From an uncultured Candidatus Saccharibacteria bacterium (GTDB lineage: Bacteria; Patescibacteriota; Minisyncoccia; Phycocordibacterales; Phycocordibacteraceae), in NCBI GenBank assembly GCA_964402535.1, contig CAYOCH010000003.1, positions 1,825 through 65,824 of the forward strand: DNA of 64,000 bases. The letters run 5' to 3'. Positions 15,486-36,666 of the stretch are shown in pieces. Position 1 is the stretch's first letter. Every line of letters starts with the position of its first letter. The notes below the pieces were generated by a model. It did no database searches. It worked only from the letters and a program-made list of their open reading frames with translations, and was not told the origin of the DNA. The position numbers were made by a program, and so were the translations under genes.

Positions 15486-15893
15486 ATGGCCACCATCAAT
15501 CAGCTCTCACGCAAGGGACGCAAGAACAAGACCTCGAAGACGAGCGTACCGGCGCTCGCTCGCGGCTTTAACGCTCTCAAGAACCGCCCGACTTTCTATG
15601 CGTCGCCCTTCAAGCGCGGCGTCTGCACCAAGGTGACCACCAAGACCCCGCGCAAGCCGAACTCGGCTATCCGCAAGATCGCTCGTGTCCGCCTCACGAA
15701 CGGCATGGAGGTCACGGCTTACATCCCGGGCGAGGGCCACAACCTCCAGGAACACTCGGTGGTGATGCTCCGCGGCGGCCGCGTGAAGGACATCGGCGTG
15801 CAGTACACGATCGTCCGCGGCAAGCTCGACACGGCCGGCCTCGAGAAGCGCCGCCGCTCCCGCTCGCGCTACGGCGCGAAGCGCCCTAAGTAA
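15486..15893 (+). CDS. rpsL: 30S ribosomal protein S12
   Basis: [12 protein letters not shown]...PKKPNSA[I]RK...[15 protein letters not shown], the canonical S12 sequence. Confidence 0.97.
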
Positions 15894-15917
15894 GTTTAAA
15901 TATTTAAACGTTTAAAT
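15894..15917. repeat. perfect 16-bp palindrome GTTTAAATATTTAAAC plus an extra GTTTAAAT in the rpsL-rpsG spacer
   Basis: Seen directly; same motif family as the palindromes flanking the four-helix-bundle island. Confidence 0.6.
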
Positions 15918-15924
15918 TTTTATC

Positions 15925-16389
15925 ATGCGTCGTCCCCTTAAGAAGCAGCGCACCTGGAAGCCGGATCTCAAGTACGGATCTGAGACGCTGACCCGTTTCA
16001 TCAACGCCGTCATGTGGAGCGGCAAGAAGGATGTCGCGCGCGCCGTCGTCTACGATGCGCTCGCCGTGATCGAGAAGGAGGGTGCGAACCCGCTCGAGAC
16101 GTTTGAATCGGCATTGCGAAACGTCTCTCCCTTGATGGAGGTGCGTTCTCGCCGCGTCGGCGGTGCCAACTACCAGGTGCCCCGCGAGGTGCCGCAGGCC
16201 CGCCGCCTCGCACTCTCGTTCCGCTGGCTCATCAACGCCGCCCGCTCGAAGAAGGGTAAGCCGATGGCAGAGAAGCTCGCCGCGGAGCTCCTCCTCGCCG
16301 CCAAGAACGAGGGCGATGCGATCAAGAAGAAGGACGAGATGCACCGCATGGCGGATGCGAACAAGGCTTTCGCCCACTTCGCCTGGTAG
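15925..16389 (+). CDS. rpsG: 30S ribosomal protein S7
   Basis: 154 aa with a conserved S7 core (SPLMEVRSRRVGGANYQVP). Confidence 0.95.
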   Translation: MRRPLKKQRTWKPDLKYGSETLTRFINAVMWSGKKDVARAVVYDALAVIEKEGANPLETFESALRNVSPLMEVRSRRVGGANYQVPREVPQARRLALSFRWLINAARSKKGKPMAEKLAAELLLAAKNEGDAIKKKDEMHRMADANKAFAHFAW

Positions 16390-16457
16390 CCGTCTTCAAC
16401 CGGCGCTTGTCGGTCCCTGTCGAGTTCAAGGTCGAGTCGTGAGTGTTCGGCAATCAA

Positions 16458-16484
16458 AAGGCGGGAGCGATCCCGCCTTTTCTA
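16458..16484 (+). terminator. intrinsic terminator after rpsG
   Basis: GGCGGGAGCGATCCCGCC stem followed by TTTTCT. Confidence 0.7.
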
Positions 16485-16490
16485 TTTAGT

Positions 16491-16520
16491 AAAAAAGAGC
16501 GGCTCCACAGAGCCGCTTTA
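16491..16520 (-). terminator. intrinsic terminator of the opposite-strand orphan gene
   Basis: GAGCGGCTC-caca-GAGCCGCTT stem with an A-run on + (a U-run on the minus transcript), 13 nt past the minus-strand stop. Confidence 0.6.
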
Positions 16521-16532
16521 TGTGATCGAACA

Positions 16533-17039
16533 TCATTCGAGGATTCTCCCGCCGCTCTCTTCGAGCGAGACATATGTGTAGAGGGCGTCGAGCTGGTCTT
16601 GGGTCCTGGTGCTCGAGTTCCCGTTTGCTGCCCGCGCTTTGCCGATCGTTTCGATCACACCCGGTATGTTCTTTGCGAGCGCATCCCTGAGCTCCTTCGT
16701 CACCGCGTCGAGCCCATAGCGATGCCAGACTTGCAGCAGCGGCTTCAGGTCGACGGCGATGATCGGGACGATCACATTTGTCTCGGCGCGGCAGAGCCAG
16801 AGCTGGCCGAAACGGCGTTCGATGCCATAGTTTTCGCGCGGGTCGGAGCCGGCCGGGTACGGCACGATCGTCATGAAGATCTCGATGGCTAGCGGGGCTG
16901 GGAGCGCGATCTCCTGCAGCGCTTTGTGGAGCGGGCTGAAGACGTTCGGCCCTGGCGGTACGGTGAACGTATCCCGCGCCATACTCTCGACGGTGATGAC
17001 GTCTTCGGCATGGTAGTTCTGTCTGCGCACGAGTCGCAT
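16533..17039 (-). CDS. hypothetical protein (orphan gene inserted between rpsG and fusA on the opposite strand)
   Basis: 168 aa with GC3-rich codon usage, a strong SD (GAAGGAGGG) 4 nt upstream of the ATG on the minus strand, and its own terminator. No recognisable family. Confidence 0.65.
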
Positions 17040-17162
17040 GGTCCCTCCTTCGGTTGGTGTGTAGGTGCAGCCGCCTCGACTCTACCAGCTCCTTGGCATT
17101 TTCGCCATCTTCAGGTATTCTTCACTCGACGCCCAAGCGGCTTTTATTTTTATTCATCACTT

Positions 17163-19310
17163 ATGACCCGCGACTATCCTCTCGAACGAGTGCGCAACTT
17201 CGGCATCATCGCCCACATCGACGCCGGCAAGACGACGACCTCCGAGCGCGTCCTCTACTACACTGGCGCGCAGCACAAGATCGGCGAGGTGCACGAGGGC
17301 GAGACGACGACCGACTGGATGGAGCAGGAGCGTGAGCGCGGCATCACGATCACGGCGGCCGCCATCACCTGCTTCTGGAGCAAGACGGCCGAGAAGGATA
17401 AGAAGGACACCTCCAAGAAGTTCCGTTTCAATATCATCGACACGCCGGGACACATCGACTTCACCGCCGAGGTGAAGCGTTCGATGCGCGTGCTTGACGG
17501 CGCGGTCGTCGTGTTCGACGGCGTCGCGGGCGTCGAGCCGCAGTCCGAGACGAACTGGCGCTACGCCGACGAGGCGAACGTGCCGCGCATCTGCTTTATC
17601 AACAAGCTCGACCGCACGGGCGCATCCTTCGAGAAGTCGTACGCCTCGATCCTTGACCGGCTCTCGCCGAAGGCGATCCGCATGCAGATCCCGATCGGCG
17701 AAGAGGCGCAGCACGAAGGCGTCGTCGACCTCCTCACGATGAAGGCGTTCCGCTTTGAGGGCTCGATGGGCGACGAGGTGATCGAGGGCGAAATCCCCGA
17801 GAATCTGCTCGAGGACGCTAAGAAGTACCGCGCCGAGCTCGTGGAGCGCATCGTCGAGCAGGACGACGCCGCGATGAACGCCTACCTCGAGGGCAAGGAG
17901 CCGTCAGTTGATGAGCTCAAGGCGATCCTGCGCAAGGCCGTGATCGTGAACGCCGTCTTCCCGGTTTACACCGGCTCGGCGCTTAAGAACAAGGGCGTGC
18001 AGCTCGTCCTCGACGCTGTCGTCGACTTCCTCCCGTCACCGCTCGAGCTCCCGGCTGTGACCGGCACCAACCCGAAGACCGGTGAGGCGATCGAGCGCCA
18101 CGCGAATGACGACGAGCCATTCTGCGCGCTCGCCTTCAAGCTTCAGACCGACCCGTTCGTCGGCGCGCTGACCTTCTTCCGCGTCTACTCGGGCTCTGTC
18201 TCGGCAGGTTCGTATATCTACAACTCGACGACCGGCACCAAGGAGCGCTTGGGCCGCATTGTCCGCCTCCAGGCCGACAAGCGCGAGGAGGTGCAGCAGG
18301 TCTTCACCGGCGAGATCGCCGCTGCCGTGGGCCTCAAGGACACCAAGACCTCGCACACGCTCTGCGACGAGGCGAACCCGATCGTGCTCGAGGAGATCAA
18401 GTTCCCCGAGCCGGTGGTGTCGCTCCGCATCGAGCCCAAGACGAAGGCCGACCAGGAGAAGATGGGCGTCGCGCTCAGGAAGCTTAGCGACGAGGACCCG
18501 ACCTTCCGCATCAAGACCGACGAAGAGACCAACGAGACGATCATCTCGGGCATGGGCGAGCTCCATCTCGAGATCCTCGTGGACCGCATGAAGCGCGAGT
18601 TCAACGTCGAGGCGAATGTGGGCAAGCCGCAGGTGGCCTACCGCGAGACGATCCAGGGCGCTGCAGACGCCGAGGGCAAGTACATCAAGCAGACCGGCGG
18701 CCGCGGCCAGTACGGTCACGTGAAGATCAAGATGAAGAAGCTCGAGCCGATCGAGGAGGGCGCCAAGATCGCCAAGAACACGACGCGCGAGGATCACTTC
18801 GAGTTCATCAACAACATCAAGGGCGGCGTGGTGCCGCAGGAGTACATCCCGGCGGTAGAGAAGGGCGTCCGCGAGGCGATGTCGCGCGGCTTCTTGGCCG
18901 GCTTCCCGATGGTGGATATCTCGATCGACCTCTACGACGGCTCCTATCACGATGTAGACTCCTCCGAGATCGCCTTCAAGATCGCGGCGTCGATGGCGTT
19001 CCAGGAGGCGGCCGGCAAGGCCAAGGCGGTCATCCTCGAGCCGATCATGCGCGTCGAGGTGGTGGTGCCGGAGCAGTTCATGGGCGACGTCACAGGCTCG
19101 CTCTCGGGCAAGCGCGGTCAGATAGAAGGGATGGAAGATAGGGGGATGAACAAGGCGATCCACGCCAAGGTGCCGCTCTCGGAGATGTTCGGCTACACGA
19201 CGACGCTCCGCTCGATGACCGAGGGCCGCGGCTCGATGACGATGGAGTTCGACCACTACGACGTGGTCCCGAACAACGTCGCGACCGAGATCATCGCCAG
19301 CCGCAAGTAG
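17163..19310 (+). CDS. fusA: elongation factor G
   Basis: [31 protein letters not shown]... with G-domain motifs ([12 protein letters not shown]). The ORF extends upstream to 16926, but the conserved N-terminus starts at the ATG at 17163. Confidence 0.96.
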
Positions 19311-19321: not shown

Positions 19322-19358
19322 AACAACCCGGCGCCCTTTGGGCGCCGGGTTGTTGTGT
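19322..19358 (+). terminator. hairpin after fusA
   Basis: AACAACCCGGCGCCC-tttg-GGCGCCGGGTTGTT. Confidence 0.6.
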
Positions 19359-19463
19359 GCTACACTGCCCGCACATGCAGACAAGGAACTTCTTTGGCGC
19401 GTATTACTTTACCGGCTCGTCCGGAAGGTTGATCCGCGCGTAGGAAGATTCCCACCCACAGAT

Positions 19464-19496
19464 CAGCCCTCCGGACGGAGGGCTGAGTTCTTTTTA
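19464..19496 (+). terminator. hairpin plus U-tract immediately upstream of a small zinc-ribbon gene (terminator or attenuator)
   Basis: CAGCCCTCCG-gac-GGAGGGCTG followed by AGTTCTTTTT, 13 nt before the SD of the 19509 gene. Confidence 0.55.
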
Positions 19497-19508
19497 GGGA
19501 GGTTCGGT

Positions 19509-19694
19509 ATGGAGATAGAGAAGGACGAGAAGCACTGCCCGCAGCATGGGCCGATGACACACTTCGATCATGTGACGGATACGGAGACCGGCGCGATGCG
19601 GAAATATCGCTGCCAGTCGTGCGCGTTTACCGCCACCGTCGAAGTGCCGCTGCCGTCGTACGTACGGCGCAAAGAGAAGGCACAATGCGCCTGA
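19509..19694 (+). CDS. small zinc-ribbon protein (hypothetical, 61 aa)
   Basis: SD GGGAGG 7 nt upstream of the ATG. C-x2-H...C-x2-C (HCPQHG...CQSC). Followed by hairpin ACACCCCGC-ttcg-GCGGGGTG plus a T-tract at 19698-19730. Confidence 0.55.
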   Translation: MEIEKDEKHCPQHGPMTHFDHVTDTETGAMRKYRCQSCAFTATVEVPLPSYVRRKEKAQCA

Positions 19695-19794
19695 CCTACA
19701 CCCCGCTTCGGCGGGGTGCTTTCTTTACTTTCATGAGAAGGGGAGTAAGGTCATAGATACCCATATTCTGGGTCAACAACGAAGGAGGTGCATC

Positions 19795-20034
19795 TTGAAG
19801 AAAATCCTTTTTTCGCTCTTTTCCGTCATCGCTGCACTCGCCATCGCCTTGCCCGCGCTCGCCGCGAACCACGCGAGCGGCACCATAACTGCCGCGGCGC
19901 CTACGGTCATCGCCGCTGCCGAGAAGGCAAAGCCCGCCGCGAAAGCGACGAAAGCTAAACCCGCCACGGCCAAGAAGGCCAAGGCCGGCAAGTCGAAGGC
20001 CAAGGCAAAAGCGAAGCCAAAAGCGAAGGCCTGA
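19795..20034 (+). CDS. small secreted Lys/Ala-rich (histone-H1-like tail) protein
   Basis: TTG start with SD GAAGGAGGTG 5 nt upstream; signal peptide MKKILFSLFSVIAALAIALPALA; C-terminal KAKPAAKATKAKPATAKKAKAGKSKAKAKAKPKAKA; strong terminator just downstream. Confidence 0.6.
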   Translation: MKKILFSLFSVIAALAIALPALAANHASGTITAAAPTVIAAAEKAKPAAKATKAKPATAKKAKAGKSKAKAKAKPKAKA

Positions 20035-20055: not shown

Positions 20056-20090
20056 AAAAAGCGGAGGTCATGCACCTCCGCTTTTTCTTA
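20056..20090 (+). terminator. intrinsic terminator
   Basis: AAAAAGCGGAGGT-catgc-ACCTCCGCTTTTTCTTATC. Confidence 0.8.
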
Positions 20091-20243
20091 TCTTGCGTTT
20101 TTATGAAGGGTCGGTTACCTTTAATCCCAACGCATCTTGGCGTCGCTCTTTGGCTCGTCGGCTGAATTCTCACTGCGGGCCGGGGGTGTTTTCCGACTCG
20201 CGTCGGATTATTAATTCGTGATTTAGAAACGTAATTACCGATT

Positions 20244-21443
20244 ATGGCAGAATTCAATCGTGCGAAGCCGCACATGAACGTGGGCACCATCGGCCACGTC
20301 GACCACGGCAAGACGACTCTCACCGCCGGCATCCTCCACGTCCTCGATATGTTGAAGGGCGAGGGCTATGGCGCCCGCGTCGAAGGCGTCGACAAGATCG
20401 ACAGCGCTCCTGAAGAGAAGGCGCGCGGTATCACTATCGCGCTCCACCACTCGGAGTATGAGTCGCCGAACCGCCACTACGCGCACATCGACGCTCCGGG
20501 CCACGCAGACTACATCAAGAACATGATCACGGGAGCCGCCCAGATGGACGGCGCAGTCCTCGTGGTCGCCGCGACCGACGGCGTGATGCCGCAGACGCGC
20601 GAGCACATCCTCCTCGCGAAGCAGGTGGGCCTTAAGAAGCTCATCGTCTTCCTCAACAAGGTGGACATGGTCGCCGAGGCAGACCTCATCGACCTCGTCG
20701 AAGAGGAGATCCGCGAGCTTCTCACGAAGCAGGGCTACGACGGCGCGAACACACCGATCATCCGCGGCTCGGGCTTGAAGGCCCTCGAGTCGAAGGACGT
20801 GAACGATGAATACGCTAAGAAGGCGAAGGAGCTCGTCGACACGATGGACTCCTACTTCGACCTCCCGAAGCGTGAGACGGATAAGCCGTTCCTCATGCCG
20901 ATCGAGGACATCTTCTCGATCGAAGGCCGCGGCACCGTGGTGACCGGCCGCATCGAGCGCGGCGTGATCAAGGTCGGCGAGGAAGTCGAGATCGTCGGCA
21001 TCAAGCCGACGGCCAAGACGACCGTCACCGGCATCGAGATGTTCAACAAGCAGCTCCAGGAGGGCCAGGCAGGCGACAACGCCGGCATCCTCCTGCGCGG
21101 CACGAAGAAGGAGGACGTGCACCGCGGCCAGGTGCTCGCGAAGACCGGTTCGGTCACGCCGCACACGGACTTCGAGGCAGAGGTCTTCGTCCTCTCGAAG
21201 GATGAAGGCGGCCGCCACACGCCGTTCTTCTCGGGCTACAAGCCGCAGTTCTACATCCGCACGACGGACGTGACCGGCGAGGTCACCCTGCCGGACGGCA
21301 AGGAGATGGTGATGCCGGGCGACACGGTCACCTTCAAGGTGAAGCTCACCGCGCCGGTCGCGCTCGAAGAGCAGCAGCACTTCGCGATCCGCGAAGGCGG
21401 CAAGACCGTTGGCGCCGGCGTCGTGACCAAGATCACCGCCTAA
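20244..21443 (+). CDS. tuf: elongation factor Tu
   Basis: 399 aa with [20 protein letters not shown] and NKVD motifs. Confidence 0.98.
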
Positions 21444-21465
21444 GCGTGTAACAACCAGTACTCGT

Positions 21466-21831
21466 ATGGCTACGGAATCGAAACCCAAGGCGAAGCGCGC
21501 CGCAAAGAAGGCGGCGCCTGCGACGGAGCACAAGCTCCGCATCCGGGTCCGCGCCTATGAGCACAAGATCCTCGACCTCTCGGTGAAGCAGATCATGGAC
21601 ACCGCGGCGCGCTTCGACGCTGTCGTCGTCGGCCCGGTGCCGCTCCCCACCGAGATCAAGCGCTGGACCGTGAACCGCTCGACCTTCGTCCACAAGGACG
21701 CTCGCGAGCAGTTCGAGATGCGCATCCACAAGCGCCTGATCGACATCATGAATCCGTCGCCTAAGGTGATCGAGGCCCTCACGAACCTCAATCTCCCCTC
21801 GGGGGTGACGATCGACGTCAAGATGGTTTAA
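21466..21831 (+). CDS. rpsJ: 30S ribosomal protein S10 (with Lys/Ala-rich N-terminal extension)
   Basis: Conserved S10 core KLRIRVRAYEHKILD...; ~20-aa KAKRAAKKAAPA extension. Confidence 0.93.
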   Translation: MATESKPKAKRAAKKAAPATEHKLRIRVRAYEHKILDLSVKQIMDTAARFDAVVVGPVPLPTEIKRWTVNRSTFVHKDAREQFEMRIHKRLIDIMNPSPKVIEALTNLNLPSGVTIDVKMV

Positions 21832-21849
21832 CCCGAGCGCAGTCGAGGG
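21832..21849. repeat. 18-nt repeat CCCGAGCGCAGTCGAGGG (copy 1, immediately after the rpsJ stop)
   Basis: An identical 18-mer recurs at 36923-36940. Confidence 0.6.
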
Positions 21850-21866
21850 TTCTAACCGCCAAGAGA

Positions 21867-21906
21867 ACACGCAACCGCCCCTCGGGGCGGTTGCGTGTTT
21901 TATTTG
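21867..21906 (+). terminator. intrinsic terminator after rpsJ
   Basis: ACACGCAACCGCCCC-tcg-GGGCGGTTGCGTGT followed by TTTATTT. Confidence 0.8.
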
Positions 21907-21943: not shown

Positions 21944-22126
21944 ATGGATTGGATCGACTACGCGCTTGAAGAAGAGAAGAGCCGGGAGCGGAAGAAAGCG
22001 GAAGCGAAAAGAGGCGGCGTGAAGAAGCAGCAGAACCCGGTGCCAGTTGCGCCCGTCGAAACGCTCCCTGATGTTCCCGATTTGTCCCATAACCACATCG
22101 ATTGGATCCCAGTCGACGAACAGTAA
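21944..22126 (+). CDS. small hypothetical protein (60 aa)
   Basis: SD GAGGAG upstream of the ATG; charged KKAEAKR core; begins DWIDYA and ends DWIPVDEQ; followed by a hairpin at 22128-22160. Confidence 0.4.
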   Translation: MDWIDYALEEEKSRERKKAEAKRGGVKKQQNPVPVAPVETLPDVPDLSHNHIDWIPVDEQ

Positions 22127-22214
22127 CCAAGGCCGCGTCTGGAGCACGCGGCCTTTGCATTTGGCGCTCTGCGTCCGGCCTGGTACACTCGCTCGCGGAA
22201 AGGGGGGCACACCT

Positions 22215-22484
22215 ATGCCTATCAGTTGGATGGAACAGCTGGAACTTGACGAGACGCACACAACCTCGAGGGAGACTGCATTGGCTAAAGAACAACCGTA
22301 CATTGTCGCTGGGATCAAGAACTACTTCGGCGGTACTGGCGAGCTTGGCGTAGAGCTCGGCACATTTCGCACTGTTGAGTTTGCGCTCCACGCGCGCGAA
22401 GCGATACTCAAGCTCGCGATAAAAAAGGGCTGGTCGGGCCGTCGCGGAATATTCCAGAACGGGAAGCTGATCAAAGAGATCTGA
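22215..22484 (+). CDS. small hypothetical protein (89 aa)
   Basis: ATG preceded by GAAAGGGGGG; followed by a strong terminator at 22501-22530 (AAAGGCAGGCCCCGGCCTGCCTTTTTTATT). Confidence 0.45.
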   Translation: MPISWMEQLELDETHTTSRETALAKEQPYIVAGIKNYFGGTGELGVELGTFRTVEFALHAREAILKLAIKKGWSGRRGIFQNGKLIKEI

Positions 22485-22500: not shown

Positions 22501-22530
22501 AAAGGCAGGCCCCGGCCTGCCTTTTTTATT
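22501..22530 (+). terminator. intrinsic terminator
   Basis: GGCAGGCC-ccg-GCCTGCC stem followed by TTTTTTATT. Confidence 0.8.
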
Positions 22531-22557
22531 GACAGCGTACTCAGACTATTTTATAAT
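22529..22557 (+). promoter_or_regulatory. consensus sigma70 promoter (TTGACA-17-TATAAT)
   Basis: TTGACA at 22529-22534, exact 17-nt spacer, TATAAT at 22552-22557; it drives the small gene at 22589. Confidence 0.6.
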
Positions 22558-22882: not shown

Positions 22883-23008
22883 TCGGCGGGTTTTCTGTTT
22901 CCTTGCATGATTTTTCGTTCTCGTGTAGAGTGCCTCCATCGCTACGACCCCATGCGGGTCCTCCAGCAAATCGCGCACCAGCGATTGCTGGCGCGCGATT
23001 TCTATCAA

Positions 23009-23623: not shown

Positions 23624-23633
23624 TTTCCGTACT

Positions 23634-24338: not shown

Positions 24339-24348
24339 CAGAACTACC

Positions 24349-26806: not shown

Positions 26807-26808
26807 CC

Positions 26809-27843: not shown

Positions 27844-27852
27844 CCGACTACC

Positions 27853-28272: not shown

Positions 28273-28291
28273 TTGCTTTTTCGTACCGGAT

Positions 28292-28495: not shown

Positions 28496-28496
28496 T

Positions 28497-28769: not shown

Positions 28770-28771
28770 GT

Positions 28772-29149: not shown

Positions 29150-29159
29150 CTATTTACGT

Positions 29160-29417: not shown

Positions 29418-29425
29418 TCATCTGT

Positions 29426-29977
29426 ATGTCGATCACCAAACAGCGCCAGCAGACCGCCTATCAGGCACTCTCACAGGACTTCGGGTACACGAGCCCGATG
29501 CAGGGTCCGCGCCTCTCGAAGGTCGTGGTCTCGACCGGCGTCGGCAAGAAGCGCGACAAGAAACAGATCGAGCTCATCTCTGATCGTCTCGCTAAGATCA
29601 CGGGGCAGAAGGCGGCGCCGCGCGCCGCGCGCCTCTCGATCGCATCCTTCAAGGTGCGCGAGGGCGACACGGTCGGTCTCCAGGTCACGCTCCGCGGCGC
29701 GCGGATGTACGACTTCCTCGACAAGCTGATCCATATCACGCTCCCGCGTACGCGCGACTTCCGCGGCCTCTCGGCTAAGGCGATCGACGACATGGGCAAC
29801 ATGACGATCGGCATCAAGGAGCACACCATCTTCCCGGAGACCGCAGATGAGGACTTGAAGGACGTGTTCGGGCTCGCCGTGACGATCGTCACGACGGCTA
29901 AGTCGAAGAGTGAGGCCGAGGCGTTCCTGCGCCACATCGGGCTCCCGCTTATCGTTGACGGAGGCGTAAAACGCTGA
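29426..29977 (+). CDS. rplE: 50S ribosomal protein L5
   Basis: 183 aa with the conserved L5 C-terminal TIVTTAK... Confidence 0.95.
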
Positions 29978-30011
29978 TAATCTCAAGGTACGCTCCCCGG
30001 AGCATTTTTTT

Positions 30012-30281
30012 ATGGCTAAAACATCCCAGCTGGCGCGCCTCGCAAAGAAGGCGAAACTCGTCAAGAAGTACGCGGCAAAGCGTGCTGCCTTGAAGGCTGC
30101 CGGGGATTCAGAAGGCCTCCAGAAGCTCCCCCGCAACTCCTCGCCGGTCCGCTTGAAGAACCGCTGCGCTATCACCGGCCGCTCGCGCGGCTATATGCGC
30201 ACGTTCGGCCTCTCGCGCATCAAGTTCCGCGAGCTCGCACGCGAGGGCAAGATCCCGGGCGTTAAGAAAGCATCATGGTAA
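30012..30281 (+). CDS. rpsN: 30S ribosomal protein S14 (long, non-zinc type)
   Basis: 89 aa with the [42 protein letters not shown]-terminus. Confidence 0.93.
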
Positions 30282-30691
30282 CTGACCGCGTCGGCGATTT
30301 CATCATCCGTCTCCAGAATGCCGCCCTTATCGGCAAGGCAGACGTCGTTGTCGCGCACTCGAGCCATCTCGAGGCGATCGCACGCAAGCTCCGTGAGCTC
30401 GGTTTCATCACCGTAGTCGAGGTCGTCGCGCCCGCCGCAGGCGGGTCCGCCTCCGGCGGAAAGCGGACGCTGGTTGCAAAACTTGCCTACGACGAGCGCG
30501 GCGTCGCCAAGCTCCGCGGCGTGAAGCGCATCTCGAAGCCGGGCCGCCGCCTCTATGTCGGCGCAGCCGACGCGCACACGGTGAAGGGCGGCACGGGCGC
30601 GCGCCTCATCTCGACCTCTGCTGGCGTGATTTCCGACAAGGAGGCGCGCAAGGAGGGCAAGGGCGGCGAGAATCTCTTCGAGATCTGGTAA
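30275..30691 (+). CDS. rpsH: 30S ribosomal protein S8 (internal GGSASGGK loop)
   Basis: [16 protein letters not shown] and the C-terminal GGENLFEIW match S8; a loop between beta-strands carries [11 protein letters not shown]. Confidence 0.94.
30440..30463 (+). repeat. 24-nt GGSASGGK-coding segment, copy 2 (rpsH loop)
   Basis: GGCGGGTCCGCCTCCGGCGGAAAG. Confidence 0.7.
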
Positions 30692-30701
30692 CTGTTTACG
30701 T

Positions 30702-31232
30702 ATGTCCCGCCTCGCTAAGAAACCTATAGCAGTCGGAAAGGCCGAAGTCTCGGTCGCCGGAGGCGTGCTCACCGTGAAGGGCCCGAAGGGCACCCTCACG
30801 AAGCGCGTCCATCCGACCGTCTCGGTCACGGTCGAGAACGGCGGGGTCATGATCGCGCCGAAGGACAGCTCACGCCTCGCAAAGGCACTCACGGGCACCT
30901 TCGCCTCGCATGTGAAGAACATGATCACGGGCGTCGAGACGCCGTATGTGAAGAAGCTCGTCCTCGACGGCGTCGGCTACCGCATGGAGGTGAAAGGGAA
31001 GGAGGTCGTCCTCACGGTCGGCTTCTCGCACACGGTGCCGGTCGCGATCCCCGAGGACATCACCGCCAAGGTCGAGAAGAACGTGATGACGCTCGAGTCG
31101 ATCAACAAGGAGTCCGTCGGCCAGTTCGCCGCCGATATCCGTCGCATCAAGCCGCCGGAGCCGTACCTCGGCAAGGGCATCCATTATGAGGGCGAGGTGA
31201 TCCGCCGCAAGCAGGGCAAGAAGGCCGTCTAA
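30702..31232 (+). CDS. rplF: 50S ribosomal protein L6
   Basis: MSRLAKKPIAVGKAEVSVAGGVLTVKGPKG, canonical L6. Confidence 0.96.
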   Translation: MSRLAKKPIAVGKAEVSVAGGVLTVKGPKGTLTKRVHPTVSVTVENGGVMIAPKDSSRLAKALTGTFASHVKNMITGVETPYVKKLVLDGVGYRMEVKGKEVVLTVGFSHTVPVAIPEDITAKVEKNVMTLESINKESVGQFAADIRRIKPPEPYLGKGIHYEGEVIRRKQGKKAV

Positions 31233-31236
31233 TACC

Positions 31237-31620
31237 ATGAACCGCAAACCCACGACCAAGAGCGAACTCCGCGACCGCCGCCACGAGCGCATCCGCGCTA
31301 TCGTGCAGGGCACTGCGGCGCGCCCGCGCCTCGCGGTCTACAAGAGCAACCGCTTCGTCTCGGCGCAGCTTATCGACGACGCAGCAAGGAAGACGCTCGC
31401 ATCCGTGCACGGCCGCGAGTTCTCCACCAAAGGCGGATCCGCCTCTGGCGGGAAGGGCCTGTCGCAGTCGGTGCAGGCGAGTTCGGTGGGTGAGGCTATC
31501 GCCACGAAGGCGAAGGGTCTCGGCGTCTCCTCGGTCGTGTTCGACCGCGGTGGCTACCGCTATGCCGGCCTCGTGAAGACGCTCGCGGATGCCGCGCGCG
31601 CTGCAGGACTCGCGTTTTAA
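31237..31620 (+). CDS. rplR: 50S ribosomal protein L18 (internal GGSASGGK loop)
   Basis: C-terminal VFDRGGYRYAGLVKTLADAARAAGLAF is canonical L18; a loop carries [11 protein letters not shown]. Confidence 0.94.
   Translation: MNRKPTTKSELRDRRHERIRAIVQGTAARPRLAVYKSNRFVSAQLIDDAARKTLASVHGREFSTKGGSASGGKGLSQSVQASSVGEAIATKAKGLGVSSVVFDRGGYRYAGLVKTLADAARAAGLAF
31432..31455 (+). repeat. 24-nt GGSASGGK-coding segment, copy 3 (rplR loop)
   Basis: GGCGGATCCGCCTCTGGCGGGAAG. Confidence 0.7.
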
Positions 31621-31624
31621 TGCT

Positions 31625-32209
31625 ATGACTACGATGATGGAACAGGACAAGGCAGTAGGGAACGCACCGGATACGGCAGCAGCGCCCTCCGGCGAGATGC
31701 GCGAGCGCGCAGGGCGTGGCTCGCTCCGCGGCCGTGCGCCGCGCGGCGGCGGCCGTGCACGCCCTGCGCGCGAGCGCGGCGAGTTCGATCAGGTGACGAT
31801 CGATGCGCGCCGCGTGGCTCGCGTCATGGCCGGCGGCCGTCGCTTCAACTTCTCGCTCGTCGTCGTGATCGGCGACCATAAGGGTCGCGTCGGCGTCGGT
31901 CTCGGCAAGGGCGTCGACACGGCGCTCGCGATCGACAAGGCGACCCGAGACGCCAAGAAGAACCTCATCACCGTCCCGCGCACCTCTTCGGGCTCGATCC
32001 CGCACCAGGTCTCCAAGAAGTACGCCTCCTCGATCATCGAGATCATGCCGTCGAAGGGCCGCGGTCTCGTCGCCGGCTCGGCGATGCGCACCGTGCTCGA
32101 TCTCGCCGGCGTGACCGACGTAGTGACCAAGATCCACTCGCGCTCTAAGAACAAGCTCACGATCGCGCGCGCGACGATCGGCGCCCTGAAGAAGCTCCGC
32201 ACGGCCTAA
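31625..32209 (+). CDS. rpsE: 30S ribosomal protein S5 (Arg/Gly-rich N-terminal extension)
   Basis: The ATG at 31625 follows the rplR stop; S5 core VIGDHKGRVGVGLGKG...GSAMRTVLDLAGV. Confidence 0.93.
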   Translation: MTTMMEQDKAVGNAPDTAAAPSGEMRERAGRGSLRGRAPRGGGRARPARERGEFDQVTIDARRVARVMAGGRRFNFSLVVVIGDHKGRVGVGLGKGVDTALAIDKATRDAKKNLITVPRTSSGSIPHQVSKKYASSIIEIMPSKGRGLVAGSAMRTVLDLAGVTDVVTKIHSRSKNKLTIARATIGALKKLRTA

Positions 32210-32219
32210 CCGCTTTACC

Positions 32220-32699
32220 ATGCAGCTCAACACGATCTCTCCTCGCACGAAGAACACCAAGCGCCCGGCTGTCGGACGCGGCGGCAAGCGCGGCAAGACC
32301 TCGGGCCGTGGCGGCAAGGGCCAGACGGCGCGCGCCGGCCACAAGATCCGCCCGGCCGTCCGTGACCTGATCTGGAAGCTCCCGAAACGCCGCGGCCACG
32401 GCAAGAACCGCTCGCGCACCGTCCGCACGAACCGCATCGCGGCCTCGGTCGTGAACCTCGCAGCGCTCGAGGCAGCCTATAACGCAGGTGAGACGGTCAC
32501 GCCGGCGTCGCTTCTCGCTAAGGGGCTCGTCCGTCGCGCTAAGGGCCGCGCGCCTGAGGTGAAGATCCTCGGCACCGGCACCATCTCTAAGGCACTCATC
32601 GTGAAGGGTTGTGCAGTCTCTGAAAACGCGGCAAAGGCGATACTAGCGGCAGGCGGTTCATCCAGCACTGACATTAGAGCTGGACAAGGCCATGCTTAA
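32220..32699 (+). CDS. rplO: 50S ribosomal protein L15
   Basis: MQLNTISP...GRGGKRGKTSGRGGKGQ, canonical L15. It directly follows rpsE, with no rpmD/L30 gene between them. Confidence 0.95.
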   Translation: MQLNTISPRTKNTKRPAVGRGGKRGKTSGRGGKGQTARAGHKIRPAVRDLIWKLPKRRGHGKNRSRTVRTNRIAASVVNLAALEAAYNAGETVTPASLLAKGLVRRAKGRAPEVKILGTGTISKALIVKGCAVSENAAKAILAAGGSSSTDIRAGQGHA

Positions 32700-33966
32700 T
32701 TCTTTCGTACACAAGCTCAAGCTCGCATTCGGCGATTCCGAGATCCGCTTCCGCATCCTCTTCTTGATCGGCGCCTTGGCGCTCTTCCGCCTCCTGGCGT
32801 CGATCCCGGTCCCGGGCGTCGACAAGAACGCGCTCGCCGCGTTCTTCGCGAACAACCAGTTCTTCGGTCTCTTGAATATCTTCTCGGGCGGCGGGCTCTC
32901 GCGCCTCTCGATCGTGATGCTCGGCGTCGGCCCCTACATCACCGCCTCGATCATCATGCAGCTCGGAACGATCATCTTCCCGCAGGTGAAGCAGGCCTAC
33001 TTTGAAGAGGGTGAGGCCGGCCGCGCCAAGTTCATCGGCTGGAGCCGCCTTCTCACGATCCCTATCGCGATCCTGCAGGGCATCGGCTTTCTCTTCCTCC
33101 TCGAGAGCCAGGGCGTGATCGCGCAGCTCTCGACCCTCGCACTTGTCGCGAACATCGCGGTCATCGCCGCCGGTTCGATGCTCCTCATGTGGCTCGGTGA
33201 GCTCGTGACCGAGTTCGGTATCGGCAACGGCGTCTCGCTTATCATCCTCGCGGGCATCCTCGCGCGCGTGCCGACCTCGATCTCTGAGACCCTCTTCGCA
33301 GCGACCGCGGCGAACATTCCTGCCTTCGTTGGATTCGCCGCGCTCTCACTCGCGATGATCTATGCGGTCGTGGTCGTCTCTGACGCAGAGCGCTCGATTC
33401 CGATCGCGTACGCACGCGCTGTCCGCGGCGCCGCGCTCTCGCAGGGCGCAGCCACCTATCTCCCGATCCGCCTCCTCCAGGCCGGCGTGATCCCAATCAT
33501 CTTCGCGCTCTCGCTCCTCCTCTTGCCGCAGATGGCGCTCTCGGCGCTCGGCGCGTTCAAGATCTCGTTCGCCTCTTCGGCGGCGCTCTGGTACAGCACG
33601 TTCCTCGCTGACCCGTGGAAGTACGGCGCGGTCTACTTCGTCCTCGTCGTCCTCTTTACCTACTTCTACACGGCCGTCACCTTCGAGCCGCACCGCGTCG
33701 CAGAGAACCTGCAGAAGACCGGCGCCTTCGTCCCCGGTGTGCGACCGGGCCGCGAGACTGAGGAGTATATCGGCAAGGTCGTTACGCGCATCACCTTCCC
33801 GGGTGCGTGCTTCCTCGGTCTCCTCGCGGTCGCGCCGTCGGTGATCCAGGGGCTCACGGGCGTCACGACGCTCGTGCTTGGCGGTACGGCGCTCCTCATC
33901 GCCGTCCAGGTGGCTCTCGACCTTGCGCAGAAGATCAACGCTCAGGTCTCGCTCCGCGAATACTAA
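32692..33966 (+). CDS. secY: preprotein translocase subunit SecY
   Basis: 424 aa with 10 TM helices and conserved SIVMLGVGPYITASIIMQL. Confidence 0.97.
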   Translation: MLNSFVHKLKLAFGDSEIRFRILFLIGALALFRLLASIPVPGVDKNALAAFFANNQFFGLLNIFSGGGLSRLSIVMLGVGPYITASIIMQLGTIIFPQVKQAYFEEGEAGRAKFIGWSRLLTIPIAILQGIGFLFLLESQGVIAQLSTLALVANIAVIAAGSMLLMWLGELVTEFGIGNGVSLIILAGILARVPTSISETLFAATAANIPAFVGFAALSLAMIYAVVVVSDAERSIPIAYARAVRGAALSQGAATYLPIRLLQAGVIPIIFALSLLLLPQMALSALGAFKISFASSAALWYSTFLADPWKYGAVYFVLVVLFTYFYTAVTFEPHRVAENLQKTGAFVPGVRPGRETEEYIGKVVTRITFPGACFLGLLAVAPSVIQGLTGVTTLVLGGTALLIAVQVALDLAQKINAQVSLREY

Positions 33967-33977
33967 AGGCAGAAGGG

Positions 33978-34012
33978 GACAGCGCCGGCTCGCGCCGGCG
34001 CTGTTTACTTTT
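33978..34012 (+). terminator. intrinsic terminator after secY
   Basis: ACAGCGCCGGC-tcg-GCCGGCGCTGT followed by TTACTTTTAT. Confidence 0.75.
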
Positions 34013-34091
34013 ATAGAATATATGGTATCATAGTCACAGACTTACGGCATGCGCATGGGGCGCACGTTACGGGTCTTTCAAGGAGATAGTC

Positions 34092-34754
34092 ATGCAACGT
34101 AAGAGAATCGATCCGATTGCCCAATTGCTCGGGACATACTTCAACGCAGCACAGGTGATGAGCGAGGCGGTTTCGGCTTGTGGTGGCAACATGGCGCAAG
34201 CCATTATGCTCATCGGCAGGGAGCCGCGCGTGCACAAGACCGAAATCGATGACATTGCAGCAATTCTCGCGAGAATGTCGCCGCAACAACAAATCTTCAC
34301 GATCCAGCGCGGCATGGGCTGGACCAATCCGGAATTGCTCCTCAACTCGAGTCTCGAGGAGGTGCCCGACGAGGTTGTCGACTATATCAGGTCCGAAGAC
34401 TTCGTCGTGTCATTACCCGAGGAGTCCGCAGATATCGTGCTCCTGGATTTCGGGCGCCATGTCCATACTCGCGCGGTGCTCGACGCATGCAAAGGTCACC
34501 TGTATGAGTGGCCATGGGCAGAAGATGCACTCCATTTCGCGCGGACGTACCCTGCGGAGCTGCAGCGCGGCAGGATCATCTTCCTCCACCGCGCGTGGCG
34601 CATGAATAATGATAACCACGTGCTCGCGCTCGACATGCACGACGGCAAGCGCCGGCTACGTTTCGTCCAGCTCGAGGAACGGGCCTGGGGTGAGAACGAT
34701 CGCTTCGCGGTCATCAAGCCGCGACACTACGAAACGCGCACTGCACAAGACTAA
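34092..34754 (+). CDS. hypothetical protein (orphan gene inserted between secY and adk)
   Basis: 220 aa; SD AAGGAG 8 nt upstream of the ATG; its own terminators before and after; moderately lower GC; no recognisable motif. Confidence 0.6.
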   Translation: MQRKRIDPIAQLLGTYFNAAQVMSEAVSACGGNMAQAIMLIGREPRVHKTEIDDIAAILARMSPQQQIFTIQRGMGWTNPELLLNSSLEEVPDEVVDYIRSEDFVVSLPEESADIVLLDFGRHVHTRAVLDACKGHLYEWPWAEDALHFARTYPAELQRGRIIFLHRAWRMNNDNHVLALDMHDGKRRLRFVQLEERAWGENDRFAVIKPRHYETRTAQD

Positions 34755-34769
34755 ATGCACGTTCGCTTC

Positions 34770-34804
34770 ACGCCGCCTCTTCGGAGGCGGCGTTTTGTTT
34801 TTAT
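34770..34804 (+). terminator. intrinsic terminator
   Basis: ACGCCGCCTC-ttcg-GAGGCGGCGT followed by TTTGTTTTTAT. Confidence 0.8.
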
Positions 34805-34828
34805 CGCTCCGCTTGCTAGAGTGAGCCG

Positions 34829-35398
34829 ATGGATAAACCAATCGTATTTTTCATAGGCAAGCCCGGGAGCGGGAAGGGGACCCAAGCCGAGCTCCTCGCC
34901 AAGGCGACAGGCTGGCCGGTCTTCGGCACGAGCGGCGGGCTGCGCGAGATCGTCGCGACCGGCACCTCTGCCGGGCACAAGCTCAAGCAGGAGATGGACA
35001 GCGGCGGCCTCACGCCCTACTGGGTCGCCTCCTACGTCTACCTGAAGGCGATATTCGGCGTCGGCGACGACAGCACGATCATCTTCGACGGCACGAGCCG
35101 CACGGTCGCCGAGACCAAGATCGTGGCCGACTCCTTGAAGTGGCTGGGCCGCCCGTACCGCATCTTCCATCTCACCGTGCCCGACGAGGAGGTGCACAAG
35201 CGCATCGCGCTGCGCAAAGAGACCGGCGGCCGCGCCGACGACCACCCAGAGGCGGTTGCGCGTCGGCTTGAGGCCTACTACGCCGATACCGACGGATCCA
35301 TCAATCTTCTCCGCGACGAAGGGATGCTGACCGACATCGACGGTCACCGCCCGCCCGAGGTAATCGCGGCAGAGGTGCGGCAGATCCTCAATATCTGA
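34829..35398 (+). CDS. adk: adenylate kinase (short-lid type)
   Basis: P-loop IGKPGSGKGTQ; 189 aa. Confidence 0.9.
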   Translation: MDKPIVFFIGKPGSGKGTQAELLAKATGWPVFGTSGGLREIVATGTSAGHKLKQEMDSGGLTPYWVASYVYLKAIFGVGDDSTIIFDGTSRTVAETKIVADSLKWLGRPYRIFHLTVPDEEVHKRIALRKETGGRADDHPEAVARRLEAYYADTDGSINLLRDEGMLTDIDGHRPPEVIAAEVRQILNI

Positions 35399-36162
35399 TG
35401 ACAATCACGAGCGACAGGCAGCGAGAGAGCCTCATCGAAGCGGGCAAGCGCCTTGCCGCTGTGCTGCGCGCGCTCGAGGCTGCGGTCGCGCCTGGCGTGA
35501 CTGCTGAAGAGCTCGACGACCTGGCCGAGCGGCTCATACGCGATGGCGGTGATGAGCCGTGCTTCCTCGGCTACACGCCAGAGGGAGCCAATCGGCCGTA
35601 TCCGGCGACCTTGTGCGTCTCAGTGAACGACGAGATCGTGCACGGCATCCCGAACGAGTCGGTGAAGACCTTGAAAGAGGGCGACATCGTCGGACTCGAC
35701 CTCGGCCTTAAGCACGATGGCGTGATCGTCGACGCAGCGATCACGGTGCCGGTGGGGAACGTGAGCGAGGAGACGAAGCGGCTCCTCTACGCGACCGAGA
35801 ATGCGCTCGCCGCGGGCATTGCCGCCACCGCGCCCGGCAAGCATGTGGGTGATATCGGTGCTGCGATCCAGAAGGAGATCGAGGCCGCCGGATTCAAGGT
35901 GGTGAAGGAGCTCGGCGGCCACGGCGTGGGCGAGTTCGTGCACGAGGAGCCGTTCATTCCCAACTACGGCAAGGCGGGCGAGGGCGAACTTCTCGTCGAG
36001 GGCATGGTGCTCGCGCTCGAGCCGATCTCTGCTGCCGGCAAGGCGTCAGTCATCCTCGCTCCCGACGGCTACACCTTCCGCACCAAGGACGGCTCACGCT
36101 CGGCACACTTCGAGCACACCATCTTGCTCGAGAAGTCGGGTGCGCGTATCATTACCGCATAG
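35398..36162 (+). CDS. map: type I methionine aminopeptidase
   Basis: 254 aa with pita-bread-fold motifs (VHGIP, GDIVGLDLG, HGVGEFVHEEP). Confidence 0.93.
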   Translation: MTITSDRQRESLIEAGKRLAAVLRALEAAVAPGVTAEELDDLAERLIRDGGDEPCFLGYTPEGANRPYPATLCVSVNDEIVHGIPNESVKTLKEGDIVGLDLGLKHDGVIVDAAITVPVGNVSEETKRLLYATENALAAGIAATAPGKHVGDIGAAIQKEIEAAGFKVVKELGGHGVGEFVHEEPFIPNYGKAGEGELLVEGMVLALEPISAAGKASVILAPDGYTFRTKDGSRSAHFEHTILLEKSGARIITA

Positions 36163-36189
36163 CCGCACCGGCTCTTATTTTTTATATCC

Positions 36190-36666
36190 ATGGCACACGC
36201 AAAAGAAGAGAAGACGCTTATCATCCTCAAGCCGGACGCGGTGCACCGCGGTCTCGTAGGCGAGGTCGTGAGCCGCTTCGAGCGCAAGGGCCTCAAGATC
36301 GTCGGCATGAAGATGATCCAGCTCGGCGACGCGCTCATCGACGCGCACTACGCGCATATCAAGGACAAGCCGTTCTTCGGCGGGATTAAGGATTTTATGA
36401 AGCGCGCGCCGGTCATCGTGATGGTGCTCTCGGGTATCGGTGCCGTCGCAGCGACGCGCATCATCGTCGGCCCGACGAAGGGCTACGAGGCGGCCGCCGG
36501 TACGATCCGCGGCGACCTCTCGCTCTCGACCCAGTCGAACATCGTGCACGCCTCTGACAGCGTCGAAACAGCGCAGGTCGAGGTGGCGCGCTTCTTTGCT
36601 GACAGCGAGCTCCTGGACTACGAGCGGAACGATTTCGGTTTCATCTACGCGGACGAGGTAGCATAA
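36190..36666 (+). CDS. ndk: nucleoside-diphosphate kinase
   Basis: ILKPDAV...GLKIVG...NIVHASDS contains the active-site His motif. Confidence 0.93.
   Translation: MAHAKEEKTLIILKPDAVHRGLVGEVVSRFERKGLKIVGMKMIQLGDALIDAHYAHIKDKPFFGGIKDFMKRAPVIVMVLSGIGAVAATRIIVGPTKGYEAAAGTIRGDLSLSTQSNIVHASDSVETAQVEVARFFADSELLDYERNDFGFIYADEVA

Follow-up and report, generated by a model that had tools for sequence, protein, structure and literature searches.

Small variable genes at predicted transcription-unit boundaries of the ribosomal-protein gene block in a patescibacterial lineage

Ribosomal-protein genes serve as the standard markers by which uncultured bacteria are placed, and their block is usually treated as a rigid chain of operons. 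Here, we describe such a block, running from rpsL to ndk, in a 64,000-nucleotide stretch of DNA from an uncultured Candidatus Saccharibacteria bacterium (GenBank assembly GCA_964402535.1, contig CAYOCH010000003.1, positions 1,825 to 65,824 of the forward strand; this whole stretch is called the window, and all coordinates count from its first letter). Five junctions between the tightly packed genes of the block hold inserted genes, and these are five of only six junctions that vary in this manner across the lineage. The explanation that we favour, with a probability of roughly 70%, is passive tolerance at boundaries between transcription units that were already backed by promoters of their own, where small, mostly foreign genes turn over rapidly and two genes have become long-term residents. 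The case would be a fairly ordinary one of genes landing where they are harmless.

According to this explanation, in which the window comes from a Kaiserbacteria-like patescibacterium, the str-S10-spc-adk block of the lineage would not be one polycistron and would instead consist of some seven transcription units in a row (rpsL-rpsG, fusA, tuf-rpsJ, rplC-rplB, rpsS-rplE, rpsN-secY and adk-map-ndk), each starting from a conserved promoter of its own (TTGCAT or TTGACT separated by 17 nt from TAnnnT), with a short leader or none, and lacking a Shine-Dalgarno site. A downstream unit that is independent of read-through would allow an insertion between the upstream stop codon and the next promoter without polarity or lost translational coupling, insertion at the other junctions (35 bp or less) would uncouple essential genes, and genes would accumulate and turn over at the unit boundaries only. 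The boundaries most likely predate the insertions and permit them, because the putative promoter motifs of rplC, rpsS and adk and the hairpin in the rplC leader are conserved with or without an insertion; since such boundaries would already have been present, insertions could be tolerated there. Tolerance is the simplest reading, since a cassette with a terminator of its own would do no harm only if the essential genes that follow it are served by a separate promoter; at any other place it would be polar and would disrupt the tight and probably translationally coupled spacing.

Junctions, promoters and terminators of the gene block

An earlier note on this DNA had reported a conserved gene order from rpsL to ndk with five expanded junctions, and NCBIfam and Pfam matches bear this out. 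The backbone lies unbroken on the plus strand and was identified with NCBIfam equivalog models (ndk with Pfam) in the order rpsL (15486-15893), rpsG (15925-16389), fusA (17163-19310), tuf (20244-21443), rpsJ (21466-21831), rplC (23009-23623), rplD, rplW, rplB (24728-25570), rpsS (26465-26806), rplV, rpsC, rplP, (rpmC), rpsQ, rplN, rplX, rplE, rpsN, rpsH, rplF, rplR, rpsE, rplO, secY (32692-33966), adk (34829-35398), map and ndk (36190-36666). Two starts were moved inwards, that of fusA to 17163, as the EF-G model begins at residue 80 of the long open reading frame (ORF), and that of rplC to 23009, as the L3 model begins at residue 38. The expanded junctions are rpsG|fusA (773 bp), fusA|tuf (933 bp), rpsJ|rplC (1177 bp), rplB|rpsS (894 bp) and secY|adk (862 bp), and the remaining junctions measure at most 34 bp, except for rplD|rplW, where the start is uncertain. 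The expanded arrangement is not an assembly artefact or a chimera, because two of the inserted genes, O1 in rpsG|fusA and O5 in secY|adk, recur unchanged (100% identity) and in the same context in assemblies made independently from two sequencing runs. The genome is contained in runs SRR5161805 and SRR5161795.

Junctions were surveyed in 80 related loci obtained by an RplB scan (79-92% RplB identity), all of them metagenome-assembled and labelled Kaiserbacteria, Paceibacteria, Parcubacteria or Patescibacteria. The 28 backbone genes were placed in these loci by tblastn and 27 junctions were measured; seven fusA|tuf values of -2121 were disregarded, as tuf lay off the locus and the query had matched the GTPase domain of fusA. 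Gaps of at least 300 bp occur in 23 of 35 loci at rpsG|fusA (range 15-2459 bp), 40 of 54 at fusA|tuf (121-4690 bp), 42 of 59 at rpsJ|rplC (144-5992 bp), 49 of 72 at rplB|rpsS (65-4025 bp) and 8 of 39 at secY|adk (12-1070 bp), as well as in 19 of 61 at rplE|rpsN (34-2729 bp), a junction that is tight in the window (34 bp). A length of 600 bp is ever reached at just these six junctions. Among the other 21, gaps of 300 bp or more are confined to a single tuf|rpsJ junction (536 bp) and a pair of map|ndk junctions (up to 479 bp), the rest measuring at most 190 bp. The five junctions singled out in the window are five of six lineage-wide variable slots, and the earlier proposal that they are preferred throughout the lineage agrees with the synteny of the 80 loci.

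Evidence that the boundaries exist independently of the insertions comes from an alignment, across the relatives, of the 130 nt that precede the gene heading each downstream block. A motif was taken as conserved with at most two mismatches (at most one for adk), the chance expectation for a 12-position motif being about 1%. The rplC motif, TTGCAT-17-TAGAGT, was found in 60 of 66 loci, and it is present at all 17 tight junctions and at 37 of the 42 expanded ones. The rpsS motif, TTGACT-17-TATCTT, is conserved in 61 of 72 loci, including 21 of 23 with a tight junction, and usually lies 36-37 nt before the ATG. For rpsL, TTGCAT-17-TATAGT is seen in 26 of 27 loci, and the TAGAGT of adk in 27 of 35, at 5-8 nt (mostly 6) from the ATG, even in secY|adk gaps of 18-19 bp. 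The tuf leader is conserved across 52 loci. Two minimal junctions illustrate the layout: in locus L011 the rplB stop codon is directly followed by the rpsS promoter motif, a small hairpin, a U-run and the ATG, and in L014 the rpsJ stop codon by a terminator-like hairpin, the rplC promoter motif and its leader. Every insert in the window sits between the upstream stop codon or putative terminator and the conserved promoter motif of the next block. The claim that the insertions had turned one polycistron into at least six units is not supported by these data, as the rplC, rpsS and adk motifs are conserved at tight junctions too.

The putative leader of rplC (22938-23008) carries a 9-bp GC hairpin (22970-22999, with arms at 22970-22978 and 22991-22999) and then UUUGCUUU just before the start codon, in the same position in L001-L079. 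RNAalifold applied to the raw alignment, in which lengths vary, gave no pairs, and a specified structure was tested on a trimmed alignment. Over 49 loci, 94.6% of the cells are paired and four of the nine pairs show compensatory changes; the covariation score of 0.286 compares with 0.078 in shuffles and was reached by none of 500 shuffles, and with the 3' partners shifted by 1-3 columns it drops to at most 0.05. The 12-13-nt loop contains CGCGAT, a stretch that could pair with the 5' arm instead. No Rfam match was found for this leader, which looks like an attenuator and may be an autoregulatory leader of the L4 type.

Seven putative units can be delineated in the window, all on the plus strand. 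The first, rpsL-rpsG (15486-16389), is preceded by a promoter-like TTTGCA-18-TATATT (15424-15453) and a 5' hairpin (15460-15474). The second, fusA (17093-19310), starts with TTGGCA-17-TATTCT (17093-17121) and a U-rich leader, and the third, tuf-rpsJ (20087-21897), has the conserved tuf leader of about 150 nt and a terminator-like hairpin at its 3' end. The fourth, rplC-rplD-rplW-rplB (22903-25570), opens with TTGCAT-17-TAGAGT (22903-22931), followed by the structured leader with its hairpin and U-run. The fifth, rpsS-rplE (26399-29977, genes from 26465), bears TTGCAT-17-TATCTT (26399-26427), a 5' hairpin (26436-26451) and a U-run. In the sixth, rpsN-secY (29955-33966, genes 30012-33966), the candidate promoter TTGACG-17-TAATCT (29955-29983) overlaps the end of rplE and is followed by a hairpin (29992-30003) with a run of seven U. 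The seventh, adk-map-ndk (34817-36666), would be of the leaderless type, with a TAGAGT -10 motif (34817-34822) that lies 6 nt from the adk ATG and has a TG two bases 5' of it. The upstream regions of rpsL, rpsS, rpsN and fusA (about 17128-17160) share one design that is conserved in relatives, namely a promoter motif, a short GC hairpin at the expected transcript start, a U-rich run and the ATG, with no Shine-Dalgarno site. This design suggests 5'-terminal stabiliser hairpins and Shine-Dalgarno-independent initiation at the first genes of units. The motif TGnTAnnnT also occurs 6-8 nt before many starts, for example those of adk (34815-34831) and of a beta-CASP gene (36943-36966), near 9410, and at 41521 (minus strand), 43281 (minus strand) and 45340, a recurrence that implies that leaderless mRNAs, as predicted from the motif, are widespread in the host.

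The ends of the predicted units are marked by hairpins. The region contains 43 terminator-like sites as against 16.2±3.6 in shuffles, and a GC-rich hairpin is found 3' of each insert and of rpsG, fusA, rpsJ, rplB and secY. The 13 strong hairpins of the gaps range from -14.7 to -33.7 kcal/mol, with z-scores (z) of -3.7 to -7.5. After rpsG and O1, two terminator-like hairpins converge (16456-16481 on the plus strand, -18.6 kcal/mol, z -4.2; 16498-16517 on the minus strand, -14.7 kcal/mol, z -3.9). That after rpsJ (21868-21897, plus strand) reaches -33.7 kcal/mol (z -7.5), that after secY (33977-34006, plus strand) -30.2 kcal/mol (z -6.0), and between the facing stop codons of rplB (25570) and O4 (25618) lies a hairpin with terminator-like features in both directions (25580-25611; -32.1 on the plus and -33.0 kcal/mol on the minus strand, z -6.6). 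The view that the inserts come with intrinsic terminators largely stands, in that 12 of the 13 hairpins have the predicted form of a stem-loop with a U-run 3' of a stop codon; the hairpin directly after fusA (19322-19354, plus strand, -32.6 kcal/mol) is the exception, having no T-run on the plus strand. The hairpins were also considered as copies of a repeated element, and this was rejected as they share no sequence. Across the whole window Rfam gave no match at gathering thresholds, and at E<=1 over the region only hairpin matches far below threshold. We infer that the motifs and hairpins described above are active promoters and terminators.

The inserted genes and the cargo of related loci

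Read base by base, the gaps contain eight candidate genes rather than the five that had been supposed, at junctions that had been correctly named, and two of them, O1 and O4, are indeed on the opposite strand. The earlier description of the inserts as being without recognisable function comes close: O4 is a DUF3298 protein related to MPT64, and O5 and O3b belong to small unnamed families. The promoters attributed to the inserts were confirmed at the level of motifs, as a match in 12 of 12 positions for O3c and extended -10 motifs of the form TGnTAnnnT 5' of O1, O2a, O3b and O5. PADLOC gave no toxin, antitoxin or defence match for any of the eight, and Pfam none either.

O1 (16533-17039, minus strand) would encode an orphan of 168 amino acids (aa) with GC content at third codon positions (GC3) of 0.79 and a coding pattern across GC1, GC2 and GC3. 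It has a GGAGG Shine-Dalgarno site 4 nt 5' of the ATG and the -10 motif TGgTAGAGT at 17079-17087 (minus strand). A word-indexed search of 5.8e9 protein clusters returned only O1 itself, and there was no Pfam, PADLOC, PHROG or PDB match. In fusA|tuf, O2a (19509-19694, plus strand, 61 aa) shows a CxxH…CxxC spacing resembling a zinc ribbon, a GGGAGG Shine-Dalgarno site and a terminator-like hairpin at 19699-19718, and its profile matches are all below threshold (DUF7838, E=0.006). Its -10 motif, TGcTACACT (19358-19366), lies about 95 nt before a hairpin with a U-run (19463-19486, plus strand, -21.1 kcal/mol) directly 5' of the ribosome-binding site; the segment from the fusA hairpin to O2a (19355-19508) could represent a 5' untranslated region (UTR) of the attenuator type, or else a small RNA. 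O2b (19795-20034, plus strand, 79 aa) begins with TTG preceded by AAGGAGGT and has a signal-peptide-like N-terminus, a Lys/Ala-rich tail, an isoelectric point (pI) of 10.9 and a terminator-like hairpin at 20056-20086. The rpsJ|rplC gap holds three plus-strand ORFs. O3a (21944-22126, 60 aa, acidic) has a GAGGAG Shine-Dalgarno site, a hairpin at 22129-22155 and no significant family match. O3b (22215-22484, 89 aa) has a TGgTACACT -10 motif at 22181-22189 and a terminator-like hairpin at 22501-22524. O3c (22589-22882, 97 aa, pI 11.3) lies behind a perfect TTGACA-17-TATAAT at 22529-22557, is followed by a terminator-like hairpin at 22870-22895 and has no family match in Pfam, PADLOC or PHROGs. In those three databases and in 92 fetched loci, O2a, O2b, O3a and O3c are without a significant match.

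O5 (34092-34754, plus strand, 220 aa), with a TGgTATCAT -10 motif at 34023-34031, an AAGGAG Shine-Dalgarno site and a terminator-like hairpin at 34770-34793, again matched only itself in the word-indexed protein search. Exhaustive HMMER searching found 26 distant relatives at 27-38% identity that share a C-terminal domain of about 130 aa, no member having a Pfam match, and O5 is on this sequence evidence assigned to a small uncharacterised family. A PDB sequence search with the family, as with O1, was empty. An AlphaFold2 model built on the alignment reached a predicted local distance difference test score (pLDDT) of 88 and a predicted template-modelling score (pTM) of 0.77 (the single-sequence model, with pLDDT 43, was of no use), and Foldseek comparison with PDB and BFVD gave nothing better than E≈0.4. 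Remote-homology searches of the orphans, which the earlier note had called for, succeeded in placing O5 in its distant family by HMMER and O4 in DUF3298, and Foldseek added no match for O5. One relative of O5 sits in a housekeeping contig, away from ribosomal genes.

O4 (25618-26376, minus strand) encodes 252 aa, or 258 from a GTG at 26394, with an N-terminal membrane anchor and a DUF3298 domain (PF11738; E=1.3e-14, 55.3 bits against a cutoff of 24.1, over the full 84-position model). Its relatives in PDB are a DUF3298 structure (3s5t), 3cyg and MPT64 of M. tuberculosis (2hhi), at E=1e-7 to 3e-6. The gene has no Shine-Dalgarno site and a GC3 of 0.83, so its composition looks native to the host. 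Thirty-five relatives carry O4 at rplB|rpsS, likewise on the minus strand, and its pairwise identity (25-79%) follows that of the backbone (67-98%; Spearman rho 0.77, 528 pairs). Because the two identities track each other, O4 is taken to be an old, fast-evolving and vertically inherited occupant, lost in about half of the lineage, and not a recent insertion. The family of O3b comprises only 7 protein clusters, and those of its relatives with readable context all lie between rpsJ and rplC (L009, L086-L088 and L089-L090, that is, L009 and two other metagenome contig sets), mostly beside other small ORFs and a PaaX_M gene. O4, of the RsiV/PdaC/MPT64-like family, and O3b are the two long-term residents.

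For the other six (O1, O2a, O2b, O3a, O3c and O5) none of the 92 fetched loci, including those with 90-92% RplB identity, yielded a relative. The idea that the inserts of the window are common to its closest relatives was rejected on this ground. These six lineage-restricted genes would have arrived or arisen as self-contained units of promoter, ribosome-binding site, ORF and terminator, probably entering by illegitimate or homologous recombination of foreign DNA with no dedicated integrase. In the window, a Shine-Dalgarno core precedes seven of the eight inserts (all except O4), whereas such a core is seen at about 3 of the 27 backbone genes and is nearly absent from some 30 other ORFs. Across the 80 loci, the GGAG/GAGG 4-mer is found at 4.6% of 1251 backbone starts as against 19% of the starts of 193 gap ORFs, and a 5-mer Shine-Dalgarno match at 0.7% as against 9.8%. 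The GC content of the gaps is 0.55-0.61 and that of the window 0.62 (62%); the inserts other than O4 have a GC of 0.54-0.62 and a GC3 of 0.62-0.79, compared with a GC3 of 0.76-0.92 in the backbone. Because they combine Shine-Dalgarno sites, in a genome poor in them, with a lower GC3, the variable genes appear to be foreign, which suggests acquisition from other genomes or elements. Gene calling by ribosomal codon usage had discarded most gap ORFs, O5 included, and was dropped.

The cargo of the relatives is just as variable. All-against-all clustering of the gap ORFs left 772 singletons, and a Pfam scan of the 150 longest returned 81 different families. Among them are PaaX_M/Cas2-like proteins, HicA, HepT/MNT pairs, type IV pilin-like proteins, sugar transferases, response-regulator receivers, guanylate and cytidylate kinases, SAICAR synthetase, a DapD-like enzyme and large surface proteins; rve transposases account for just 2 of the 150. 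The PaaX_M/Cas2-like cargo has nine members across three junctions in at least 7 genomes and behaves like a mobile or selfish gene. These proteins of about 170-210 aa combine a winged-helix region with a PF20803 domain (E down to 2e-20) and occur at rpsJ|rplC, at rplE|rpsN (minus strand) and at rpsG|fusA, with two copies in some genomes; examples are L038:1931-2563, L012:6740-7354 and 15107-15688(-), L058:474-1067 and 15712-16302(-), L041:15049-15642(-) and L086:5913-6413. The secY|adk slot holds guanylate kinase genes at L003:19505-20092 and L064:20076-20654 and cytidylate-kinase-like genes elsewhere, and these kinases beside adk are the sole case in which cargo is functionally related to its neighbour.

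Explanations for the variable slots

It might be thought that the junctions are attachment sites of site-specific mobile elements, of an integrase, homing or integron-like kind, and that the inserts are what these elements carry. The repeated use of the same six sites, the spread of the PaaX_M/Cas2-like and winged helix-turn-helix (HTH) gene over three junctions in at least 7 genomes, the presence of HicA, HepT/MNT and two rve transposases in the relatives' cargo, and the build of each window insert as a compact ORF with a hairpin would all accord with such targeting. However, Pfam, PADLOC and PHROGs revealed no integrase, transposase or homing endonuclease in or next to the gaps of the window. 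Around the gaps there are only imperfect 12-24-mer direct repeats at chance level, with no candidate attachment (att) sites or target-site duplications, and no tRNA or tmRNA gene was found in the window. Measured against a genomic island, the gaps show the deviant composition, with neither a recombinase nor att repeats or a tRNA target; measured against an integron-like cassette array, they have no integrase, their hairpins are unrelated in sequence and carry T-runs, and several cassettes have promoter motifs of their own. The hairpins belong to no shared sequence family and resemble ordinary terminators, and the 81 unrelated Pfam families of the relatives' cargo, plain housekeeping enzymes among them, likewise count against targeting. 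Nothing in the sequence points to a dedicated integration mechanism, and we consider targeted integration very unlikely, the least probable of the readings weighed here. A functional niche, in which the inserts would be selected at the ribosomal locus for work with the translation apparatus or for its expression pattern, has a little more in its favour and is still improbable. O4 has been kept at rplB|rpsS in about half of the relatives and has diverged with the backbone, the O3b family wherever its context is resolved (the window, L009 and L086-L090) follows rpsJ, guanylate and cytidylate kinases recur at secY|adk, and O2b and O3c are very basic. Against this stand the six of eight window genes with no relative at any junction in the 92 loci, the functional miscellany of the relatives' cargo, and the fact that O4, a membrane-anchored protein of extracytoplasmic type encoded on the opposite strand, is unlikely to be ribosomal; moreover, O4 is missing from about half of the relatives and O3b from most, and a relative of O5 lives away from ribosomal genes. 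The two images offered earlier for the junctions, landing sites and a conserved niche, each capture a part: most cargo is variable and unrelated between genomes, as landing sites would have it, and O4 and O3b stay put at their junctions, as a niche would have it.

It might further be argued that some of the inserts are not genes at all, and that O2a, O3a, O3c and possibly O2b arose by chance as ORFs in spacer DNA that is decaying or regulatory, the gaps being remnants of old insertions or long structured UTRs. These four have no homologue in the searches and a lower GC3 (0.62-0.76), 19355-19508 resembles a long 5' UTR with an attenuator-like hairpin, and a GC-rich genome yields many spurious ORFs (161 of at least 50 aa in 24 kb). 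Yet each of the small ORFs has, in a genome with few such sites, a Shine-Dalgarno site at a good distance and, immediately after its stop codon, a strong hairpin with a T-run, O3c stands behind a 12/12 consensus promoter motif and O2a has paired Cys/His motifs, which leaves this possibility with small odds, slightly below those of a functional niche. A more speculative thought, and one we would hold only loosely, is that in Patescibacteria the boundaries serve permanently as a 'gene nursery' or capture zone, where self-contained minigenes led by Shine-Dalgarno sites, foreign or newly arisen, would be continually tried out in the best-conserved and most highly transcribed part of a tiny genome. 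A few of them would become fixed as lineage-specific translation-associated factors, and O3b, so far seen only between rpsJ and rplC, would be one unrecognised ribosome-associated protein.

Passive tolerance at promoter-backed boundaries, the reading we prefer, has difficulties of its own. At rpsG|fusA the fusA promoter motif is found at 1 of 12 tight and 15 of 22 expanded junctions, and this promoter may have come with or after the expansion, so that at this junction an insertion may have brought or required a new promoter, as the earlier note had it. The conservation of the rpsN motif is weak (3.3 mismatches on average). Promoters, terminators and leaderless starts alike are read from sequence. 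The coding status of O2a, O3a and O3c is drawn solely from Shine-Dalgarno sites, hairpins and composition, and the Shine-Dalgarno contrast could reflect expression class instead of foreign origin. The surveyed loci are phylogenetically related, and counts of loci are not counts of independent events. The sites that seem preferred may be merely those that are visible because the backbone is conserved. All these points weigh against the reading, and it is with them in mind that we infer both tolerance over targeting and a foreign source of the cargo.

Genomic neighbourhood and comparison with known systems

The surroundings of the block hold further departures that deserve mention. L30 (rpmD) is missing between rpsE and rplO, and infA-rpmJ-rpsM-rpsK-rpsD-rpoA-rplQ is absent after map within the region, with none of these genes seen in a partial annotation of the remaining window. 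What comes after map is ndk and a 466-aa RNase of the beta-CASP metallo-beta-lactamase fold (36190-38358); the adjacency of map and ndk is found in just 13 of 32 relatives. Just 3' of the beta-CASP gene, 38415-38690 encodes a 91-aa DNA-binding protein of the excisionase family (MerR-like HTH), which may be a marker of a nearby mobile element. On the 5' side of rpsL, where rpoB and rpoC would be expected (12092-15420), lie a 795-aa protein without an NCBIfam match and a 309-aa Pro/Ala-rich protein, the latter kept 5' of rpsL in 16 relatives. Elsewhere the window encodes PcrA, YifB, RNase J, GroEL and CopA, which are ordinary genes of a chromosome.

For annotation and the curation of genome bins, it matters that six sharply delimited slots can carry cargo with no break of synteny, and that one large patescibacterial lineage has a different and well-defined unit structure. 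For operon evolution, the block offers a natural experiment in which insertions would be tolerated only where a downstream promoter already exists. The pattern also brings to light candidate signals for Shine-Dalgarno-independent or leaderless initiation and a candidate regulatory leader 5' of rplC, and among the conserved hypothetical proteins O4, O3b and the O5 family are worth testing.

In the archaeal and cyanobacterial-type arrangement, rpsJ goes together with tuf, and the L3 operon has a separate start. The present block is alike in the close linkage of rpsJ to tuf (median 41 bp) and in that rplC begins what appears to be a unit of its own, with terminator, promoter and leader, whereas here the two blocks are still adjacent and the spacer between them is a variable gene slot. 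The S10-operon leader of E. coli is known for L4-mediated attenuation. In the lineage described here, the L4-encoding unit is similarly preceded by a conserved, covarying GC hairpin with a U-run just 5' of its first gene; in contrast to E. coli, this element lies 5' of rplC and not of rpsJ, and it has no sequence or Rfam similarity.

Integration hotspots and genomic islets resemble the slots in the recurrent gain and loss of unrelated accessory genes at fixed intergenic positions, in atypical composition, and in having toxin-antitoxin and other selfish genes among their cargo. The slots differ in lacking a tRNA target, an integrase and att repeats, and in that the inserts are tiny (0.2-6 kb, often a single gene) and lie inside a ribosomal-protein block.

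Closer parallels come from the evolution of ribosomal operons themselves. Adjacent operons can be joined by overlapping terminators and promoters, a process termed operon 'concatenation' (PMC8046335; PMC6735719), and this is mirrored here by the predicted rpsN promoter overlapping the end of rplE, by the rpsS promoter motif abutting the rplB stop codon in L011 and by the adk -10 motif following the secY stop codon. Our literature search, which was incomplete and is no proof of novelty, found no description of the junction-insert pattern in Patescibacteria. The nearest counterpart is inter-operon insertion in ribosomal clusters (sensu Brandis, 2021), where, as in this block, few unrelated genes lie at unit boundaries and the order within units is intact; here too the order is kept and the inserts appear to lie between units, the case being weaker for fusA and rpsN. 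Unlike the known examples, the block is unbroken at the canonical boundaries str|S10 (tuf|rpsJ) and S10|spc (rpsQ|rplN) and is interrupted inside canonical operons (rpsG|fusA, fusA|tuf, rpsJ|rplC, rplB|rpsS and rplE|rpsN), each junction is occupied in 20-75% of genomes, a much larger share, and the cargo is mostly orphan or of narrow families and turns over between genomes at about 90% rplB identity. Overall, the pattern is the same in kind as the known inter-operon insertion and reveals no new mechanism.

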